64,000 nucleotides of DNA from Patescibacteria group bacterium (GTDB lineage Bacteria > Patescibacteriota > Microgenomatia > UBA12405), in NCBI GenBank assembly GCA_018902845.1, contig JAHIPV010000009.1, positions 8,950 to 72,949 on the forward strand, written 5' to 3'. Both the position numbers and the translations under genes were made by a program. This document shows positions 8,661 through 48,736 of this stretch, one piece after another. Position 1 is the first letter of the stretch, and every line of letters begins with the position of its first letter. The notes under the pieces were generated by a model. The model saw only the letters and a list, made by a program, of their open reading frames with translations, made no database searches and was not told the origin of the DNA.

Positions 8661-9573
8661 TCATCATTAGTCCCCAGGAAAGTACAGAAATCAAAATTGG
8701 TATATCGGTGGCGATTATTTTTTCTGGTCTTTCGCCTTCCTGCATTTCAAAGATTATTTGACCATATCTCATGATACCGATTATGACAGGAAACAAAGTT
8801 ATCATATACCATTTGCGATTAAGGGCTTTTGGGATGTTATTTAAAAGAAATTGATGAATTAATCCATCAAAATGAACCGGTTCTTCAAAAAAAGTGAACA
8901 TAGCGTATGTAATAAGAGTGGCAACGGCAAAAATAGATGAATAAAAATTAAGCAAAGCTTTTGTATAGCCCTGTAAGGCTGGTCTGGTTTTTTTACCGGT
9001 ACCAACCAATTCGCTCCTGCGTTTACCACTGGCGATAAAAAGAGAAAGAAAAATAACCGTAAGCATTAACCAAACCGGAAGATGATAACCAGTGGCCAAT
9101 TCACCAGCATAGACACGAATGATAAAAAATAACGATATGCCCAAAATGTCGAAAAGTGCTTTCTTTTTGAAAACAAATGAGTACATAAATTGAAGACAAA
9201 TAAATAGAAGAGAAGTCACAAAAAATGAGATATTGATTGACAAAGAAATAAAAAGACCCAAGATTGCCAAGAGAAAAGAGACAAAGATAGCTTCGTTTTT
9301 TAATAAAACACCACGAGCCAAGGGGCGGTTACATTTGGTAGGGTGCATTTTATCTTTTTCTATATCTACAATATCGTTAACCAGATAAGACGAAGACGAT
9401 AAAAAAGAAAAAGTGCAAAAAGCCAGAATTGATTTTAACAAAAGACTGGAATCTAGTAGTTGACCGTTGATAATTAAAGCGGCAAAAAGACTGAGATTTT
9501 TTATCCATTGTGTTGGCCTTAAGGCCTCAAAAACGGACAAAAACTTAGAGTTTTTATTATTTTGACCCGACAC
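8638..9573 (-). CDS. UbiA-family prenyltransferase (decaprenyl-phosphate phosphoribosyltransferase-like)
   Basis: LRPTQWIKN, NDIVDIEKD and HPTKCNRPLA motifs. Confidence 0.88.
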   Translation of the reverse strand: MSGQNNKNSKFLSVFEALRPTQWIKNLSLFAALIINGQLLDSSLLLKSILAFCTFSFLSSSSYLVNDIVDIEKDKMHPTKCNRPLARGVLLKNEAIFVSFLLAILGLFISLSINISFFVTSLLFICLQFMYSFVFKKKALFDILGISLFFIIRVYAGELATGYHLPVWLMLTVIFLSLFIASGKRRSELVGTGKKTRPALQGYTKALLNFYSSIFAVATLITYAMFTFFEEPVHFDGLIHQFLLNNIPKALNRKWYMITLFPVIIGIMRYGQIIFEMQEGERPEKIIATDIPILISVLSWGLMMIAIIYVI

Positions 9574-40111: not shown

Positions 40112-41326
40112 TTAGTTGGGTTGCAGTTTGCCAATAAGGCTATAAATTGGCGAAATAAATGTTAGAACCATAAAGCCAACGGCAATGCCAACAATAATCA
40201 TCAAAATAGGTTCGAGAAGAGTGATGAAATTCTTTAAGGAATTTTCTACTTCCTCCTGATAAAAAGTAGCAGTGTCTAGCAAAGTTTTTTCTAGGGTTCC
40301 GGTTTTTTCTCCAACGGCAACCATTTGGGTCATTAATGAAGGAAAAATTTTTGCCCGCAAAAAAACTTCGGTGAGAGAAGTTCCTTGTGAAATTTCTTTG
40401 GCAAATTGGTCGGCTAGTTTTTTTTTGCCAGGAAGAATCAAGGACTGACAAGCAATTTCCAGTGATTCCCCTATAGAAACGCCCCCTTTAAGCAGGGCAG
40501 AAAGGCTTTGGTTAAAACGAGTTAGGTTGTAATGAAGCAGAATATCCTTAAGGACGGGCAACTTGCTGGTTATCAAATAGATTAATCTTCCTCCTTTTTT
40601 GCTTCTGAAAAAAAGTGTTAGAAGAAATATTAATACAGGAACAGAAAGAAGAACAGCGAGACTGTTTTTTTGCATAAAAAGGCTGATGTTTAATAAAAGC
40701 TTAGTTAAAGGAGGAAGCTCTACATTAAGATTAGTAAAAACCTTGCCAAGTCGGGGAAGAACAAAAGTTAGCATGAGCAGACCAATGGCAAGCATAAGGC
40801 TGATAATTATGGCCGGATAAAGAAGAGAGCCTATAACTTTTTTGCGTAAATCTTCTTCCCTTTTGAATTGAATGGATAAATGGTTAAAAGACTGGTCTAA
40901 TGTCCCAGATATTTCACCTGTTTTAACCATGGCAAGAAATATATCGTCAAAAAACTTTGGATATTTTCCGAAACTGGAATGAAGGGAAGAACCTTTTCTG
41001 ATAGAAAAACTTATATCTTGAAGTACTTTTTTGACAGTTTTGTTTTCTGTACCCTTGATTAAAAGATTGACCGATTCTTCCAAAGGTAGGCCGGCATTCA
41101 TCATGGTGGAAAGATAGCGACAAATAGAGATTTTTTCTTTAACAGGAAATTTACCCGAAATTTTTATGTCTGCTGACAGAGAGCCTTCTTTTTGTTCTTT
41201 TAAAACAAGGACCTGATAACCTTTGTCCTTGAGGAGGGACTCGGCTTCTTTTTCCGATGAAGCATTGATGATATCGGCGATCAATTTTCCTTTTTTGTCA
41301 GTGGCTTTGTACTTAAAAAGGGGCAT
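40112..41326 (-). CDS. pilC: Type IV pilus platform protein PilC/GspF
   Basis: MPLFKYKA start, GEISGTL, YPA and EP motifs. Confidence 0.93.
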   Translation of the reverse strand: MPLFKYKATDKKGKLIADIINASSEKEAESLLKDKGYQVLVLKEQKEGSLSADIKISGKFPVKEKISICRYLSTMMNAGLPLEESVNLLIKGTENKTVKKVLQDISFSIRKGSSLHSSFGKYPKFFDDIFLAMVKTGEISGTLDQSFNHLSIQFKREEDLRKKVIGSLLYPAIIISLMLAIGLLMLTFVLPRLGKVFTNLNVELPPLTKLLLNISLFMQKNSLAVLLSVPVLIFLLTLFFRSKKGGRLIYLITSKLPVLKDILLHYNLTRFNQSLSALLKGGVSIGESLEIACQSLILPGKKKLADQFAKEISQGTSLTEVFLRAKIFPSLMTQMVAVGEKTGTLEKTLLDTATFYQEEVENSLKNFITLLEPILMIIVGIAVGFMVLTFISPIYSLIGKLQPN

Positions 41327-41362
41327 TAAATAAGAATAGCATGGGAATAAGTTTTTTGGGTG

Positions 41363-41401
41363 TTGACTAAGAATACGGATTGTTGTAGAATTGTACAACA
41401 A
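41363..41401 (+). promoter_or_regulatory. Promoter and inverted-repeat operator of the AbiE cassette
   Basis: TTGACT-17nt-TAGAAT; TTGTTGTA-N6-TACAACAA. Confidence 0.7.
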
Positions 41402-41402
41402 A

Positions 41403-42002
41403 ATGAAATATATAGATTTTTTAAGACATTTTGATAAGAGACAAATAATATCTACCCAAAATGTTAGAAATAAATTTGGAAATATAGATAGGCATCATTT
41501 TAGCGTTTGGGTTAAAAAAGGCTGGCTTGTTGCAATTAAAAAAGGTTTTTATGCTTTACCGCAGAAAGATTTAGACGTGCATTTAATTGCAAACAGAGTC
41601 AATAAATCATATATATCTTTGGAATATGCTTTGTCTTTTTACCAAATAATTCCCGAAATAACTCGCGTGATTACCAGTGTTTCTTGCGAAAGAGCAGAAA
41701 AATTTGAAAATGATTTTGGGACTTTCAGTTATTATAAAATTAAGTCTGATTTGTTTACCGGTTATGTAAAGAGAGAGTCAAAACTTAAGGATGTGTTTTT
41801 TAAAATAGCAAGCCCTGAAAAGGCGTTGTTTGATTTGGTTTATTTTAGGGACGATTTAAGAAGTAAAAATGACTTAATAGAATTAAGGTTAAATTTAGAA
41901 AAAAAAATAGATTTGAGAAAAGTCTATAGTTATGTTGAATTAATTCAATCAAAAATAATAAAAAAACGATTATTAAATTTTTTTGATTACTTAAATGCTT
42001 GA
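41403..42002 (+). CDS. AbiEi-family type IV antitoxin
   Basis: KKGFY, SYISLEYALSFYQIIPE and ASPEKALFD motifs. Confidence 0.85.
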   Translation: MKYIDFLRHFDKRQIISTQNVRNKFGNIDRHHFSVWVKKGWLVAIKKGFYALPQKDLDVHLIANRVNKSYISLEYALSFYQIIPEITRVITSVSCERAEKFENDFGTFSYYKIKSDLFTGYVKRESKLKDVFFKIASPEKALFDLVYFRDDLRSKNDLIELRLNLEKKIDLRKVYSYVELIQSKIIKKRLLNFFDYLNA

Positions 42003-42834
42003 TTTTAAAGAGATAAAAAAATATTTTCCTTTAAATGAGTCCCGTTTAGACAGGGCGGTATTAGTGGAATATTTGCAATACAAAATATTAGAGATTTTGT
42101 TTGAATCTAAATTTGGTGAAAAATTGGTTTTTATGGGTGGAACTAGCGCGAGAATTATTTATGGAAATGATAGATTTTCTGAAGATTTGGATTTAGACGG
42201 ATATGCTTTAAAAAAAGATGATTTTGGTTTGATGATAAAAAATTTAGCGTTGAATTTAAAAAGAGAAGCCTTTGAAGTTGAATATAGAAATGTTTATAAA
42301 GGAGTGTTTAGGTGCTATTTAAAATTTCTAAATTTATTGCAAAAATTTAATTTGACAGATTATGAAACTGAAAAAATATTGATACAACTTGATATTAATC
42401 AAAAAAAGGGAAAAGTAAAATTTGAAACAAGAATTATTAATAAATTTGATGTTTTTGCTGAAATTAGAGTATATCCAATAGACATGCTTTTATCTCAAAA
42501 AATAATTGCACTTTTAAACAGAAAGCGACCTAAAGGCAGAGATATTTATGATATTGTTTTTTTGTTTTCAAAAACACAACCTGAGTGGAATTTATTGAAA
42601 AAAGAAATTGGTATAGAAGGAAAGTCAGAATTGAAAGAAAAATTTGAAATTTTTTGTGAAAAAAATGATTTGAAAAAATTGGCTAGAGATGTAGAGCCTT
42701 TTTTGATTAAATCAAAAAAAATTATTCAGGTGGAAAAATTTAGAGATTGGGTAAAAACAAGTTATTCTTTGGTGGCGGCGAAGATTTCTTCGATAGTAGT
42801 AAATCCAGAGGCAATTTTGTCAAAACCGTCTTGA
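41995..42834 (+). CDS. AbiEii-family nucleotidyltransferase toxin
   Basis: FMGGTS, RFSEDLD and K..RDIYD motifs. Confidence 0.9.
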   Translation: MLDFKEIKKYFPLNESRLDRAVLVEYLQYKILEILFESKFGEKLVFMGGTSARIIYGNDRFSEDLDLDGYALKKDDFGLMIKNLALNLKREAFEVEYRNVYKGVFRCYLKFLNLLQKFNLTDYETEKILIQLDINQKKGKVKFETRIINKFDVFAEIRVYPIDMLLSQKIIALLNRKRPKGRDIYDIVFLFSKTQPEWNLLKKEIGIEGKSELKEKFEIFCEKNDLKKLARDVEPFLIKSKKIIQVEKFRDWVKTSYSLVAAKISSIVVNPEAILSKPS

Positions 42835-44456
42835 AGCATGGTTACCATACCAGCCTTGACAGCGGCTTTTTTGATTTCTTCTTCGTTGGTCATTTTGAGA
42901 GTAAGTTGGCGAATCTCATCGTTAACTTCCATAACCTCGTAAATACCGACCCGCCCCCTGTATCCAGTTTGATTACATTTTTCACAACCCTTGCCTTTGT
43001 AAAACTTTTGTTTGTCAAAATTTTTACCAAGAGATTTATTGATATGGTCTAATGTTTCTTGACTGGGTTTGAATTCTCCAACACAAGCGGGACAAATACG
43101 GCGGACAAGTCTTTGGGCAATAACTATATTGATAGTGGAAGATAGTAAATATCCTTCGGTACCCATATCCAAAAAACGGGGAATTGCGCCAGGAGCAGAA
43201 TTAGTGTGAAGTGTAGAAAGAACCAGATGGCCGGTAAGAGCCGAATGGACGGCCATATTGGCAGTTTCGGTATCTCTAATTTCACCGACCATGATAATGT
43301 CAGGATCGTGCCTAAGTAAAGATCTAAGACCAACATTAAAATCTAAACCTGTTTTGTGATTGACCTGGATTTGACTGATACGAGGCATACTATACTCAAC
43401 CGGATCCTCAATGGTACAAATTTTGACCTTGATTGTATTAAGAATGTTTAAAATACTATAAAGAGTAGTGGTTTTGCCTGATCCTGTGGGTCCGGTAACC
43501 AGAATCATACCGTTAGGTTTTTTGATGTTTCTTTTGACTATTTCCAAACTAACTGCCGATAAACCGAGTTCTTCTAAATTTAAGGGGCGCGAAGAGGTTG
43601 GTAGAAGTCTTAAAACAATATTTTCTCCAAAAAAACTGGGTATAATAGAAACACGTATACCTATTGAGATTTCATCTACCTTGAATTTGAAACGACCATC
43701 TTGAGGCACCCTATGTTCGTCAATTTTTAGATTAGATAAAACTTTTATTCTGGCAACTATAGCCGGCTGAATGTCTTTGGGAAGAATCAAAACATCAGAC
43801 AATACACCGTCAACTCTCAATCTAACAATAAGAGAGTCTGATTGGGTTTCAAAATGAAGGTCGGAAGCATTTTCGGCGGCAGCATATTCAAGTATGGCAT
43901 CTAAAATTTTTACTACCGGCAAATTGGTAGCTACTTTAAGCAACTTTTCTACCGTGTCTTTTTCTGTAACAGAACCGGCTTTTTTTATATTTTGGGTAAT
44001 AATATCTTTAAACTTTTTTTTGATGTCACGCTTATATTGGTTTAAAGCTCTGGCAAGGTCAGCCGGACTGGTAAAAAAAACAGAAACAGGAAGGTCAACT
44101 TGACGTTTGGCGGTTTCTAGGGCTTCAAAGTTTTGCGGATCTTCCATGGCCAAAGACAGTCCCTTGTCGGTTTTTTCAAATGGAATCATGCGATAACGAC
44201 GGGCTAGGTTTTCCGGTATCAGATCTAATATTTCATCAGGGATTAAGTAGTTTTTTAGCGGTACATAGGGAAGATTTAAGCTTTCTGCGACAAGACGGGT
44301 CAAAACCTCTTCTGACAAAAGACCCCTAAAAACAAGCGTATCGGCCAAAGATCTGTCTAAATCCTTGGAGGCTTTATAGGCTTCTTCCAAATCTTGACTT
44401 GAAAGAAACTTGTTTTTTTTTAAAATTTCGTAAAGTGTTTCTTCGTATTTTTTCAT
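42762..44456 (-). CDS. pilB: Type IV pilus assembly ATPase PilB/GspE
   Basis: GPTGSGKTT, EDPVE, GEIRD and tetra-Cys motif. Confidence 0.95.
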   Translation of the reverse strand: MKKYEETLYEILKKNKFLSSQDLEEAYKASKDLDRSLADTLVFRGLLSEEVLTRLVAESLNLPYVPLKNYLIPDEILDLIPENLARRYRMIPFEKTDKGLSLAMEDPQNFEALETAKRQVDLPVSVFFTSPADLARALNQYKRDIKKKFKDIITQNIKKAGSVTEKDTVEKLLKVATNLPVVKILDAILEYAAAENASDLHFETQSDSLIVRLRVDGVLSDVLILPKDIQPAIVARIKVLSNLKIDEHRVPQDGRFKFKVDEISIGIRVSIIPSFFGENIVLRLLPTSSRPLNLEELGLSAVSLEIVKRNIKKPNGMILVTGPTGSGKTTTLYSILNILNTIKVKICTIEDPVEYSMPRISQIQVNHKTGLDFNVGLRSLLRHDPDIIMVGEIRDTETANMAVHSALTGHLVLSTLHTNSAPGAIPRFLDMGTEGYLLSSTINIVIAQRLVRRICPACVGEFKPSQETLDHINKSLGKNFDKQKFYKGKGCEKCNQTGYRGRVGIYEVMEVNDEIRQLTLKMTNEEEIKKAAVKAGMVTMLQDGFDKIASGFTTIEEIFAATKE

Positions 44457-44462
44457 GATAGT

Positions 44463-44572
44463 TTGTCATTCCGACCGAAGTGGAGGAATCCCTGAATTTA
44501 TTTCAGAAATCCCGCCATAGGCGGGATACCTCAGACAAGCTGAGAGATCCTTCGGCTACGCTCAGGATGACG
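44463..44572. repeat. Paired composite element that supplies the stop codon of the receiver gene
   Basis: ORF 44562..44930 ends PSS* inside the element. Confidence 0.9.
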
Positions 44573-44930
44573 GAGGCAGGTAATTTTTGATTTTTTCCAA
44601 CAGTTCAAGCGGATTTAAGTCTGCTTTTAATATAAATTCTTTGGCTCCGTTTTCTAGAGCCTCTTTTTTGGCATCTTGGCTCATTAGATTAGTATAAAGC
44701 AGGACGGTTGTATTTTTGTTTATTCCTTTTTTGATTTCTTTAAGAAGATTTAAGCCGTCAATTTTTGGAAGCATGATATCAAGCAAGATCAGATCAAACT
44801 TATCCTTTATTTTTTCTAAAGCATCTTGTCCGTCTAAAGACAAGTGAACTTGGTGCTGATCTTTTTGCAATTTGGTGGAATATATTTTGGAATTAAGCAT
44901 GTCGTCGTCGACGATAAGGAGTTTAGCCAT
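44562..44930 (-). CDS. Stand-alone response regulator receiver
   Basis: IVDDD, LLDIMLP, conserved T and K. Confidence 0.92.
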   Translation of the reverse strand: MAKLLIVDDDMLNSKIYSTKLQKDQHQVHLSLDGQDALEKIKDKFDLILLDIMLPKIDGLNLLKEIKKGINKNTTVLLYTNLMSQDAKKEALENGAKEFILKADLNPLELLEKIKNYLPPSS

Positions 44931-45102
44931 GAATTGTGGTGTTTTTTATTAAATTAATTAAATCCTGATTAGAATCATAGGCTTTTTGAAGTAGATTGGA
45001 GTTTTTGTCTGATTGTTTTTTGTCATCCAAAATAAGAGCCAAGCAATTTTTTATAATAGATAATTTTCCCAAAAAATCGTGAGAGTTTACTTTTATATTC
45101 AT
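44923..45102 (-). CDS. 59-aa stand-alone HisKA/DHp-like protein (not in the ORF track)
   Basis: MNIKVNSHDFLGKLSIIKNCLALILDDKKQSDKNSNLLQKAYDSNQDLINLIKNTTIHG; aligns by eye with the DHp of the adjacent kinase; 8-nt overlap with the next gene. Confidence 0.7.
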   Translation of the reverse strand: MNIKVNSHDFLGKLSIIKNCLALILDDKKQSDKNSNLLQKAYDSNQDLINLIKNTTIHG

Positions 45103-45112
45103 GTTGTTTCTA

Positions 45113-45176
45113 AAATCCGCCCTTGGCGGATATCTCGCATTCGCGAGAGATCCCTCCGCTACGGTCGGGATGACAA
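45113..45176. repeat. Solo composite palindromic element, intergenic
   Basis: Sibling of the 39430-39500 segment. Confidence 0.88.
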
Positions 45177-45179
45177 TAA

Positions 45180-45572
45180 CTAATTAATTTTTAAAAAACG
45201 GTTAACATTTTCGATAAACTCACCTGGAGTTAGGTCGCTTTTGATAAGATAGCCGGCTACTCCCATAGCAACACTATCTGCAATGGCGGTATCTTTGCTC
45301 AGGTTGGTTAAAACCACAATTTTGCCATTGGCTTTTTTTGGTTTGGGATCATTTTTTAACTTTTTTAAGATTTCTAGGCCATCGATTTTGGGAAGCATGA
45401 TATCAAGTAAGATCAGATCATAACCACCTTTTAAAATAGCCAAATAACCATCGTAGCCATTGGCAGCTTGATCAACGGAAAAACCTTCTTCGGTCAAAAT
45501 GTCAACATAAAGCTCCCTTAAATAAATTTCATCTTCAACAACTAGTATTTTTTTGTTTGATAAGTTAGTCAT
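45180..45572 (-). CDS. Stand-alone response regulator receiver
   Basis: VVEDE and LLDIMLP motifs. Confidence 0.92.
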   Translation of the reverse strand: MTNLSNKKILVVEDEIYLRELYVDILTEEGFSVDQAANGYDGYLAILKGGYDLILLDIMLPKIDGLEILKKLKNDPKPKKANGKIVVLTNLSKDTAIADSVAMGVAGYLIKSDLTPGEFIENVNRFLKIN

Positions 45573-47709
45573 TGTATTTTGGAAGAGAAAAAATAAAAGT
45601 GCTTCCTTCGCCTACTTTTGATTGTACCCATATTCTACCCTTATGCAAACCAATGATTTGTTTTGCTATATAAAGACCCAGTCCAGTACCGGGAGTTTCG
45701 GCTAGTTTGGCAAACGAGCCACCAAGGCGTCCAAATTTTTTGAAAAGGTTTGGCATGCTTCTTTTGGGAATTCCGGGGCCGGTATCCTTGATACTGGTTT
45801 CTATTTTGCCATTTTTGTCTTGGAAAAAAATCTGGACAGAGCCTTTTGGCGGGGTGAATTTAATGGCATTGCTGATTATGTTTTGGAGGACTTCTGTTAT
45901 TTTGTGTTCGTCGGCTCTGGTAAAAGATTTAAACTCTGGTTTTTCAAAAGAGAATTTTATTTGCTTTTCGTCGGCTTTTATTTTTAGTTCATCAAAAACT
46001 TGCTTGGCCAATAAGGCAAGATCTAATTTGACAAAGTTAAGATCAAGACGACGGCCTTCGATTCTGGAAATAGTAAGCATATCTTTAACTAGGGTTATTG
46101 TTCTTTCGGTTGATATATAAGCCCTGTTTAGATTTGTTGTGAGTTTTTGGCTGAGTTCTTTTTTGTGTTTATTAAGCGCCAGCCATAAGTAGCTTTTTAT
46201 GGCGGTCATTGGAGTTCGAAGTTCATGAGAAGCAATTGAAACAAATTCGTCTTTTAGAGAAGATAATTCTTTTAATCTTAAATTGGCTTTTTTAAGCTTA
46301 AGAGTAGCTTTGTCGATTTCTCCTCTAAGGGTTTCACTAAATTGCTGAATTTCGTAATAAGCCAGTGAGTTTTGGATAGCTACTGCCATTTGAGAAGCCA
46401 AAATTTCTAAAATCTCTATATCTTGTGATGAGTAAATATCACCAGAAGATTTTTCTCCTAAAAGTAAAAGTCCTATTTTCTTGTTTTCGATTTTTAAGGA
46501 AATTGAAAAAGCAGTTTGGGTCTGGTACATGGCTTTTTTACTTGATGTTTCATCCAGTTCTTCTAAAACGATGACATTTTTGGGAGATTTGTAAAGGGTT
46601 AATATGCTTTTTTCATTAAGATTTATATTATCAGGATAAGTGTGAAGAGATAACTTCTTGGATAGGTTTTTATTTTTAAGAAAAATAGCTCCGTAAGAAA
46701 TTTTCATTTCTTCAGTTAGTTTCTGTAAAAAAAATTGATTTAAATCTTTTAGAAGAATGGTAGAAGACATGAGTTTTCCCATGTTTTTTAAAAGTTTTTC
46801 CGGGTGATACCTTTTTTTATAAAATATCTCATCGGTGTTTTTTTCTAAGTAGCTTCTTAGTGGTTGAAAAGAGAAAGCCATTATTAGAGATAAAAAGGTG
46901 GAAAGTATAAACTCTTGTTTACTGGTCATATTGACCATAAGAAAATTACCAAGAATAGAAAAGGTTCCGGCATAAAGACCGGCGAGAATGGTTAAAAGGA
47001 GAAAATAAATGAGAAGTTTGACAAAGATAAGGCGAATATCAAGAAGCCTGTGTTTAATTATGGCATAGCTAATAATGGCGATCATAAAGGTGATAAATAT
47101 AGGGCCTATGTGAATATATTTGTAGTTACCAAAAAGAGGAAGAAAAATATTAAAAGGAAGAGCACCTATTAAAGGAAAAAAAACAGACAAAAGAATAAGA
47201 CGAAGTTGAGCTTTTTGAAAACCTCGAGAATTAAGGAATTTTTTAACAAGTTTGATTACAGCCCAAGCAAAAAAAATACAAAAATAAAGAATCCAAAAAG
47301 GATAGATTGGCCCAAGAGAAACTACTGGGCCGTGAGGACTTGGATTTATTTTTTGAATAAAAAAATTTGAAAAGATGAGAAGATAGATTATAAAAGTGGG
47401 TATGCCGGCAAATACAAGGTTTTGGTTTTTTGAAGGTAGTTTTTTTTCAGTAAGAATATGAGCGAAATAAACAAAAGAAGACGGAACTAAAGTGCCTGAA
47501 ATATAAATAAGTCGATCCCAAAACAGAGCCACGGGGATGTTGGTAGAAGCGCGAAAAAAGGCAATGGAAAGTGGCCAAAGAGAAGCATTAAGAATAAAAA
47601 TAGCAAAGGAACTATTGGTGGTATTTTTTTGATTACGAAAATATACGATAAAAGCAAGGACTAGGTTAACGAAACTAATGAAAAGAAGAAAAAGACTAAT
47701 AAAATCCAT
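45565..47709 (-). CDS. Sensor histidine kinase (multi-TM N-terminus, GAF-like, HisKA, HATPase)
   Basis: SHELRTP, NAIKFT, DTGPGI and GTGLGL motifs. Confidence 0.95.
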   Translation of the reverse strand: MDFISLFLLFISFVNLVLAFIVYFRNQKNTTNSSFAIFILNASLWPLSIAFFRASTNIPVALFWDRLIYISGTLVPSSFVYFAHILTEKKLPSKNQNLVFAGIPTFIIYLLIFSNFFIQKINPSPHGPVVSLGPIYPFWILYFCIFFAWAVIKLVKKFLNSRGFQKAQLRLILLSVFFPLIGALPFNIFLPLFGNYKYIHIGPIFITFMIAIISYAIIKHRLLDIRLIFVKLLIYFLLLTILAGLYAGTFSILGNFLMVNMTSKQEFILSTFLSLIMAFSFQPLRSYLEKNTDEIFYKKRYHPEKLLKNMGKLMSSTILLKDLNQFFLQKLTEEMKISYGAIFLKNKNLSKKLSLHTYPDNINLNEKSILTLYKSPKNVIVLEELDETSSKKAMYQTQTAFSISLKIENKKIGLLLLGEKSSGDIYSSQDIEILEILASQMAVAIQNSLAYYEIQQFSETLRGEIDKATLKLKKANLRLKELSSLKDEFVSIASHELRTPMTAIKSYLWLALNKHKKELSQKLTTNLNRAYISTERTITLVKDMLTISRIEGRRLDLNFVKLDLALLAKQVFDELKIKADEKQIKFSFEKPEFKSFTRADEHKITEVLQNIISNAIKFTPPKGSVQIFFQDKNGKIETSIKDTGPGIPKRSMPNLFKKFGRLGGSFAKLAETPGTGLGLYIAKQIIGLHKGRIWVQSKVGEGSTFIFSLPKYND

Positions 47710-47744: not shown

Positions 47745-48674
47745 TTAACTCAATGTAACTCTAGCTACAACGGATTGGTCAAAAAGGGTTTTGCCGACTT
47801 CTTCTACTTTTAAGCCTCTTTGTCCGAGTTCTTCTTTAAGTTCTGCAACCGTCCACAAAGGTGAATATCGTTGAAATTTTTCGCCAAAATTAATCATTGC
47901 GGGAACAGCAAATAACGCTCGCAAAGTTTGTCTTGTTTTACCGGGTTTGGCTATATCTCTAGGAAAAATTTGGGTCATAAATGCAATACCGAGTGCTTTT
48001 GAATCAAACTTGCCGGCTTCAAGCATGTGGAGCCAAAATTCCTCCGCAGTACTGCCGTTTTTGATTGCACCTTTAATAATTCTTGTCATAGTCTCTGGAT
48101 CAGTGTAGGTTAATGCCCAACTGCTATAATCGAGTGCTGGCGCCCCTGGGTGTTGCTCTGAAATTCTTCTGCGCTTTTCTACTGGAAATGGATCATAGAA
48201 ATTATAATCGACAATTTCATGTGGCATTCCAAGTCTATCAAGTCTTGTTCTCGCCAAGCCATTGGCTCCTCTGCTATCATCGTAGCTCAAATATTTAACT
48301 GGCTGAGATTTTCTAAAATATCTGGCGTCAAAACCACCTCCATCTCCCCAAGAAGAAACAATGCTTCCTTTTCTTGGTTTAATGTGTCCAACCATTTGAG
48401 CTCCTACCCCAAGAACCTGCATCATATCTGCAAATTTCGGTTTACCTTGACCCTCTTCACCCATTCTAAATCCAACGATATCTTGGTTCCAAAATTGACG
48501 AGTTTCTGCTCTAATTCTGGCTTCGACAAGTTCCCTATCTCCCCCAACCAGATGGTGAATTTTAGACAGCTCTCCTACACCAAGACCGTCAATTCCTTTT
48601 GTATTATAAAGCCTAAGCAATCCTTGTACGTCTGTTGGTCTGGGTGGTAGTGTTGTTTTTTCTTTTCCGAACAT
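47745..48674 (-). CDS. Orphan protein, possible SAM-methyltransferase fold
   Basis: WGDGGG glycine motif then acidic YDDS; start moved to ATG 48674. Confidence 0.5.
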   Translation of the reverse strand: MFGKEKTTLPPRPTDVQGLLRLYNTKGIDGLGVGELSKIHHLVGGDRELVEARIRAETRQFWNQDIVGFRMGEEGQGKPKFADMMQVLGVGAQMVGHIKPRKGSIVSSWGDGGGFDARYFRKSQPVKYLSYDDSRGANGLARTRLDRLGMPHEIVDYNFYDPFPVEKRRRISEQHPGAPALDYSSWALTYTDPETMTRIIKGAIKNGSTAEEFWLHMLEAGKFDSKALGIAFMTQIFPRDIAKPGKTRQTLRALFAVPAMINFGEKFQRYSPLWTVAELKEELGQRGLKVEEVGKTLFDQSVVARVTLS

Positions 48675-48736
48675 CAGCTTATAGCTAAGATTATAGCACA
48701 GCCCCAAAAAAGCGAGGCGATTGAAATAAGAAACCG

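Follow-up and report, generated by a model that had tools for sequence, protein, structure and literature searches.

What can the phosphoacceptor hairpin of a histidine kinase do on its own? The question is raised by a type IV pilus locus in a 64,000-nucleotide stretch of a Patescibacteria genome (GenBank assembly GCA_018902845.1, contig JAHIPV010000009.1, forward-strand positions 8,950 to 72,949; hereafter the window), where a 59-residue open reading frame (ORF) lies between the genes of two stand-alone receivers, REC1 and REC2, behind a sensor histidine kinase (HK) gene and ahead of pilB. An initial annotation, made from the letters alone, had described this gene order, had assigned the minus-strand ORF to the dimerization and histidine phosphotransfer (DHp) domain by its H-box and helix-2 stretches, and had noticed that it runs into the REC2 start codon. 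ORF coordinates and Pfam matches confirm the order, the frame and both stretches, and the stop codon of the ORF overlaps the REC2 start by 8 nt (Table 1). The ORF is a real, maintained gene, and its product, called mini-DHp here, is a DHp-only helix hairpin homologous to the DHp domain of kinases. That it serves as a minimal Spo0B/ChpT-like phosphotransferase, in a chain from HK through REC1 and mini-DHp to REC2 that likely controls PilB, is a reading in which we place as much confidence as doubt.

A maintained gene for a bare DHp hairpin

Near homologues of the mini-DHp occupy the equivalent slot in two other genomes (G053 and G058) and on a metagenome contig (L007). In three species pairs, the ratio of nonsynonymous to synonymous substitution rates (dN/dS) of the gene is 0.11, 0.21, and 0.07, indicating purifying selection (Fisher p 4e-7, 2e-4, and 5e-11, respectively). 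The receivers show values of 0.03–0.08, so the mini-DHp evolves faster than its neighbors. A first profile search, which covered 1.84 billion representatives, returned 27 matches, 25 of them with 53–72 residues, and the two long repetitive ones were discarded; a second profile search gave 56 proteins. The merged alignment (A3) comprises 72 proteins of 53–77 residues, which form 47 clusters at 70% identity. Where the sources give any name, it is hypothetical protein, and the organisms are Shapirobacteria, Roizmanbacteria, Microgenomates or Patescibacteria. The phosphoacceptor His is invariant in all 72 members and stands at residue 8 or 9 in 69 of them. It is also present in all 17 locus-verified mini-DHps, which represent at least four sequence types, and is the sole invariant column across all types. 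Thus, the checks proposed by the initial annotation turned out in favor of a gene: the ORF is conserved and selected instead of decaying, and its His does not vary.

The homology to kinases is evident at the family level. The window protein alone matches Pfam HisKA (PF00512) weakly, with an E-value of 0.046 that falls under the cut-off, and 34 of the 72 members match it at E-values up to 1 (best 5e-5); the distant G145 copy exceeds the cut-off. When the A3 profile was aligned by hhalign with kinase DHp profiles of these genomes, scores of 98.6% (E 9e-16) and 97.1% were obtained with His placed on His, and a reversed-profile control scored 0.08%, which bears out the DHp match proposed earlier. 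Searched against 401 genomes of the class, the A3 profile matches full kinases next best. As the initial annotation had stated, no ATPase domain accompanies the hairpin: tblastn detected no trace of one between the two receiver genes of 14 loci (best E 0.17). With neither HATPase_c nor a complete H-E/D-x-x-T/N-P box, the protein is no sensor histidine kinase. Nor does it belong to the histidine-containing phosphotransfer (HPt) family (PF01627), as Hpt does not appear in the Pfam families listed for the mini-DHps, 25 of 39 in the scan of the 72 members, and the model has two helices rather than the monomeric four-helix HPt fold.

The AlphaFold2 monomer is a two-helix hairpin with a predicted local distance difference test score of 86.6. 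The His opens helix 1, after a brief extended stretch in which hydrophobic residues alternate; in kinases, the segment before the His continues as helix. The mini-DHp is likely a homodimer that forms a four-helix bundle. A complex prediction of two mini-DHp chains with REC2, run without controls, scored 0.30 against a mark of 0.32 and is given no weight for or against a complex. Foldseek searches with the monomer model gave no match with an E-value of 0.001 or lower, the top ranks being taken by generic hairpins, e.g., Rop, and sequence searches of the PDB gave no significant match, HisKA kinases appearing at E 0.06–1.5 with the widest profile.

Two further candidates were set aside. The match on contig L008 is a chance similarity inside a long unrelated ORF. 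P0034, a 192-residue protein from one short contig that joins REC1 to a mini-DHp with Trp at the junction, is likely a stop codon read through by the gene caller, because its three cluster mates have 60 residues. No longer fused form was found among 7994 candidates, which is weak evidence.

Distribution of the cassette and lineage of its partners

The mini-DHp gene lies directly before REC2 and pilB in 14 loci of nine families and at least five orders (G000, L007, G053, G058, G411, G225, G194, G135, G171, G195, G215, G136, G160, and G145). pilB follows REC2 in every one of them, and REC1 directly precedes the mini-DHp in 13, the exception being G136. The mini-DHp and REC2 genes overlap or are at most 5 nt apart in at least nine of the 14 loci, and the 8-nt overlap recurs in L007, G053, G058, and G411. 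The active-site residues of REC1 are intact in 12/12 cassette orthologues, and Asp9, Asp10, Asp51, and Lys102 of REC2 are invariant in 15/15. The copies in G171, G195, G215, G136, and G160 were found via REC2 and not via the mini-DHp, and all keep the His; these finds were not fully blind, in that weak local profile scores had drawn attention to four of them and the filter that picked out G160 required a His. The G160 ORF fills the gap between REC1 and REC2 and matches HisKA at E 0.001.

A REC2-driven search of the class, in which the surroundings of 58 of the 59 matches were inspected and one unpublished genome was left out, revealed a mini-DHp in between in all eight other loci with REC1 followed by REC2 and pilB. 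The unpublished genomes G197 and G649 are counted in search totals only and support no claim made here. Before the pilB-linked receiver, 14 loci have a mini-DHp in the slot, 10 have a kinase, and one has neither. These slot kinases are full sensors or intact 265-residue sensor-less kinases (G258 and G436). In the locus that has neither (G170, 83% complete), the kinase, REC1, and the mini-DHp are all missing together. The system is patchy, being present in 3 of 132 genomes of the window's order, and the same three have a close REC2 orthologue. Outside the class, the system did not appear in a phylum sample of 301 genomes: the widest profile gave 214 matches there, and in the 150 of these that were listed, the window's own gene is the only short-frame match.

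Several related arrangements were encountered. A third type of mini-DHp stands beside extra REC1-clade receivers (L053:7370-7645, L054:6014-6268, and L055:10180-10410), in pilus loci with two kinases and three or four receivers. Sensor-less kinases of 241–265 residues, whose H-box and ATP-binding motifs look intact, occur at L118:4458-5255, L119:4159-4956, L120:2923-3678, and L126:4247-4972; two of them lie directly before a receiver gene and pilB, and they may be intermediates or relay kinases. In G260, a 61-residue HisKA-only ORF (L228:4714-4899, plus strand; Pfam E 7e-6) keeps the His, has Asn at His+4, and converges on a cluster of a kinase, a REC1-clade receiver, and an OmpR-type regulator; it may represent another type of relay or phosphatase, one whose output binds DNA. 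The pilB of G145 is followed by another pilB-like gene, which lies in two frames (L052:3-888). The record L013 is titled uncultured Gammaproteobacteria, yet it groups in the window's order with cassette-matching genes and is likely mislabelled.

The partners of the mini-DHp derive from distinct lineages. REC1-type receivers form one clade (support 99/100 in a tree from which one of 69 rows was left out), which includes the receivers of plain kinase–receiver pairs, and the cassette kinases cluster with the kinases of such pairs (28 rows; SH-aLRT branch support 98). REC2 falls outside this clade. Its helix-1 pattern (Thr, then Lys or Arg) recurs in those pilB-linked receivers that are accompanied by a kinase of their own, and REC1 and REC2 differ at the helix-1 specificity positions. 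The relay proposed in the initial annotation thereby gains comparative support: REC2 lacks a kinase of its own type in the cassettes, and the mini-DHp occupies that slot. The strand-5 switch aromatic is kept in 14/14 REC2 and 6/12 REC1 sequences, a weak hint that REC2 might be the output receiver. In G225 (95% complete), the single HisKA kinase and the two receivers detected in the entire genome are those of the cassette. G000, G053, and G411 have, beyond the cassette, only one more kinase, paired with an OmpR-type regulator. Further kinases are present in G135, G194, G171, G195, G160, and G145 and leave room for a phosphate donor from elsewhere in these genomes.

A candidate relay and its competitors

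In HisKA kinases, an acid at His+1 is required for autokinase activity, and Thr or Asn at His+4 for phosphatase activity (PMC3510030; PMC5727384). Among the 72 mini-DHps, His+1 is Asp in 65 and Asn, Tyr, Ala, Gln, Arg or Lys in the others, and His+4 is Gly in 70 and never Thr or Asn. In five of the six distant cassette mini-DHps, His+1 is Gln, Arg or Lys, and the G145 and G160 proteins have Ser at His+4. Since the His+4 Thr/Asn is lost throughout and the His+1 acid is relaxed, His-dependent transfer between receivers would be the simplest job for the hairpin. Other positions also set it apart from kinases: His+3 is Leu in 72/72 against Arg in 43/43 kinases examined, and His+5 is Lys in 66/72 and Pro in none.

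The surface that faces the receivers, with positions numbered as in established kinase work, is mixed: His+11 is like that of REC1-type kinases, and His+14 and His+18 are like those of REC2-type kinases. At His+11, Asn is found in 68/72 mini-DHps, Ser or Asn in 27/28 REC1-type kinases, and Gly in 11/11 REC2-type kinases. At His+14, Ser occurs in 37/72 and Trp in 1/72 mini-DHps, Trp in 28/28 REC1-type kinases, and Ser in 7/11 REC2-type kinases. By whole-domain scores, 71 of the 72 mini-DHps are nearer to the DHp of REC1-type than of REC2-type kinases, also after profile sizes were equalized. The mini-DHps of G136, G160, and G145 are nearer to REC2-type kinases, which hints at more than one origin. 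The tree of mini-DHps and kinase DHp domains, with 58 columns and long branches that meet, does not separate one from several origins.

In the proposed relay, His495 of the kinase would phosphorylate Asp57 of REC1, as the clade of the two proteins suggests, and the phosphate would then pass through His8 of the mini-DHp to Asp51 of REC2, which may act on PilB by direct contact, a step suggested by gene coupling alone. In evolutionary terms, the mini-DHp would wire a kinase–REC1 pair onto a pilB-linked receiver that has its own kinase in other genomes. A broader form of this proposal, which we hold tentatively, is that, in ultra-small Patescibacteria, a kinase stripped to a bare hairpin of 55–75 residues, probably more than once, is a complete Spo0B/ChpT-type phosphotransferase. 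It would join two once separate kinase–receiver pathways, giving a His-Asp-His-Asp relay of four proteins, none of them DNA-binding, which would switch the motor of the type IV pilus; in at least one genome, this relay would account for every two-component protein that can be detected.

Several observations weigh against the relay. The genomes are kin, so the locus counts are not independent, and the invariance of the His in the 72 proteins is partly a matter of ascertainment, since the profiles used to find them contain the His. REC1 and REC2 differ only weakly in the switch aromatic, as the residue is kept in 14/19 paired receivers of the REC1 clade. In G136, the mini-DHp, REC2, and pilB stand without an adjacent kinase or REC1, both types being encoded elsewhere in the genome. 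Cassettes of a kinase, two receivers with overlapping genes, and pilB occur without a mini-DHp in other clades (G024, G006, G087, and G074), which means that one kinase can sit with two receivers. In G366, G241, and G444, a related mini-DHp lies beside REC1-clade paralogues and the pilB-linked receiver keeps its own kinase; a mini-DHp, therefore, does not always fill an empty slot. The prevalent acid at His+1 would also fit phosphorylation by a kinase in trans. Finally, the CckA–ChpT relay conserves a small Ala-Ala contact (PMC9981736), and the residue at His+8 of the mini-DHp is bulky (Ile or Val in 69/72).

The last but one of these points leads to an unlikely alternative, in which the ATPase domain of the kinase phosphorylates the mini-DHp His, within a mini-DHp homodimer or a kinase–mini-DHp heterodimer, and the phosphate goes on to REC2; REC1 would be bypassed, and the kinase would gain a second specificity. 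Besides the retained Asp, the closeness of 71 of the 72 mini-DHps to REC1-type kinases makes heterodimers conceivable. A split kinase is found in Rv0600c-Rv0601c-tcrA. This three-gene system comprises two kinase genes and one regulator (PMC3544749). However, the acid is replaced by Gln, Arg or Lys in most of the distant cassette members, the Arg at His+3 and the Pro at His+5 are lost in all 72 proteins, and REC1 directly precedes the mini-DHp in all but one locus.

It is likewise unlikely that the mini-DHp drains receiver phosphate as a sink, or dephosphorylates REC2 when switched by phosphate, with the kinase phosphorylating both receivers. The Myxococcus RedCDEF system has an equal four-part layout, in which RedE takes phosphate from RedD and dephosphorylates RedF (PMC2755868). 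The cassettes without a mini-DHp, the mini-DHps beside REC1 paralogues, which fit a modulator, and the Ser kept at His+4 in two members would agree with such a role. Yet, the RedE phosphatase needed ADP or ATP and has an ATPase domain (PMC2755868), and the mini-DHp has none. The phosphatase function that the initial annotation had offered as an option is weakened by this missing ATP/ADP-binding domain together with the lack of Thr/Asn at His+4. In addition, the helix-1 specificity differences between REC1 and REC2 make direct phosphorylation of REC2 by this kinase less likely.

Inhibition of the kinase, by a DHp–DHp heterodimer or by shielding of a receiver and without phosphorylation of the mini-DHp, is quite unlikely. 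Its profile is nearest to the neighboring kinase type, and inhibitors of this kind have precedents. RetS has an inhibitory role in the RetS–GacS complex. A structure of this DHp co-complex exists (PDB 7n0e, according to its title), and small antikinases such as Sda are known (PMC12471899). An inhibitor would not need the His, which is nevertheless the sole invariant column, and its gene would not be expected to be coupled to REC2 and to stay with REC2 and pilB when the kinase is encoded elsewhere, as in G136. It would also leave REC2 without a phosphate donor in G225. Other explanations, taken together, are improbable. The initial annotation had further considered a deletion remnant, and its premise holds in part, as 10 other genomes have a full or sensor-less kinase in the slot and the mini-DHp gene may descend from a kinase; yet a decayed, functionless remnant, which the patchy distribution and the higher dN/dS relative to the neighboring genes might suggest, is very improbable, since significant purifying selection with dN/dS well below 1 largely refutes decay, the 72 proteins all have 53–77 residues, and the frames are intact in nine families with no ATPase fragments.

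Spo0B carries an extra C-terminal domain, and its output is a transcription factor, unlike that of the cassette. Like the cassette, the Kin-Spo0F-Spo0B-Spo0A relay consists of four separate proteins, with a DHp-bearing phosphotransferase after a single-domain receiver (PMC5231405). ChpT of Caulobacter and Brucella (PDB 4fpp and 4qpj) is likewise a kinase-derived DHp hairpin that has one His, lacks autokinase activity, and links two receivers, and its bundle-core residues Phe35, Ala39, Ile42, and Leu46 correspond to the hydrophobic His+2, His+6, His+9, and His+13 of the mini-DHp (PMC3433190). Unlike the mini-DHp, ChpT has a C-terminal ATPase-like domain (PMC3433190) and Pro at His+5. Its phosphate comes from the hybrid kinase's own receiver, and its outputs are a DNA-binding regulator and CpdR, whereas the putative partners of the mini-DHp are both stand-alone receivers. 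Judged from its sequence, the mini-DHp shares the feature that defines the Spo0B/ChpT type, an invariant His on a DHp without autokinase activity, but not their C-terminal degenerate ATPase-like domain. Weak SPOB_a matches were obtained for 7/72 mini-DHps (best E 0.0024, none reaching the cut-off), and a SPOB_a search of the window's own genome did not pick the mini-DHp. The PDB sequence searches matched no Spo0B or ChpT chain, and the ChpT model of NCBIfam matched one of 17 mini-DHps at E 0.055. By these searches, the mini-DHp is not orthologous to Spo0B or ChpT, and its nearest relatives are kinases of the same genomes.

The closest layout is that of RedCDEF from Myxococcus xanthus, with an adjacent membrane kinase, receiver protein, non-autophosphorylating kinase-like protein, and single-domain receiver, for which receiver-to-His transfer has been demonstrated (PMC2755868). 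RedE differs in having 242 residues with HATPase_c and in being a nucleotide-dependent RedF phosphatase, RedD has two receiver domains, and the system is not linked to pili (PMC2755868). Stand-alone HisKA proteins are counted as phosphotransfer proteins, a P2RP category, in genome censuses (PMC9953108), and small ESM Atlas clusters from other phyla contain HisKA alone in 63–90 residues (feature score 0.96–0.97); the architecture is, therefore, not unique. In the text consulted, the P2RP proteins constitute an annotation category with no demonstrated function and no described family, synteny or pilus link (PMC9953108), and some of these small proteins may be gene fragments. As for the output, two response regulators downstream of a kinase, PilG and PilH of the Pseudomonas Chp system, control type IV pilus extension (PMC10519157). 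Chp differs in being a chemosensory system with ChpA, to which both regulators belong, and involves no DHp-only protein. It is a precedent only for the putative link between REC2 and PilB. Searches of the open-access literature revealed no paper on this family, the cassette or its pilus link, although supplementary gene tables could list it. The DHp-only microprotein family, in a four-gene signaling cassette before pilB, is apparently undescribed.

Locus layout and implications

The coordinates of the locus are given in Table 1. The gap between REC1 and the mini-DHp contains a palindrome of a family resembling repetitive extragenic palindromic (REP) elements, of which the genome holds about 50 copies and three shuffled versions hold none. 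The window contains 11 copies within 2800-53646, e.g., at 45174, 44571, and 44465, and some fall within the starts or ends of predicted ORFs. The repeat is not part of the signaling system, because the same gap is at most 13 nt in six other loci. A scan for promoters and terminators gave no matches above chance, and no Shine-Dalgarno site precedes the mini-DHp; such a site is present in only 58/677 long ORFs. The sequencing runs listed included none of RNA.

Table 1. Features of the pilus signaling locus in the window, in descending order of position.
Feature	Position	Strand	Description
Sensor histidine kinase (HK)	45565-47709	minus	714 residues; HisKA_7TM membrane sensor, GAF, HisKA, HATPase_c (Pfam); phosphoacceptor His495 = 46225-46227, Thr at His+4 (H-box comparison)
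REC1, single-domain receiver	45180-45572	minus	130 residues; Asp57 = 45402-45404 (Pfam)
REP-like palindromic repeat	45113-45174 (end approximate)	minus	Lies in the gap between REC1 and mini-DHp
mini-DHp	44923-45102	minus	59 residues, ATG start; His8 = 45079-45081; no sensor or ATPase domain; predicted short extended N-terminus, helix 7-26, helix 32-58
REC2, single-domain receiver	44562-44930	minus	122 residues; Asp51 = 44778-44780 (Pfam)
PilB/GspE-type assembly ATPase	42762-44456	minus	564 residues; MshEN-like N domain and T2SSE (Pfam)
PilC/T2SSF platform protein, same pilus locus	40112-41401	minus	

Other genes surround the cassette. Upstream of the kinase, a 320-residue ORF (47745-48707, minus strand) cannot be assigned clearly to a Pfam family; the kinase of G411 likewise has a distant homologue (26%) of this ORF before it (L049:1812-3062). 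Between pilB and pilC, the opposite strand carries an insertion (41391-42834, plus strand), also found in L007, of an AbiEii-type nucleotidyltransferase gene (Pfam E 6e-19) and its upstream 203-residue partner; the partner has no Pfam match, and an antitoxin role for it is a guess. PilB of the window shares 59–72% identity with PilB of mini-DHp-bearing loci in other families and orders and only 40–45% with the PilB proteins seen in four genomes of its own family, which suggests that the pilus locus as a whole was transferred or differentially lost.

If the relay reading is true, no relay protein of this kind would be smaller than the mini-DHp. Spo0B and ChpT both keep an ATPase-like domain; a natural counterpart of 60 residues would demonstrate that the hairpin is sufficient by itself. 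The occurrence of a full kinase, a sensor-less kinase, and a bare hairpin in the same slot would then be a snapshot of how relays arise from kinases, and the mini-DHp would provide a tiny part for rewiring two-component circuits. The cassette would also be the first concrete signaling route to the patescibacterial type IV pilus that we could find, and one that can be reconstituted with four small soluble proteins. Genes this small are easily missed or named hypothetical protein, and hidden relays may outnumber current counts.

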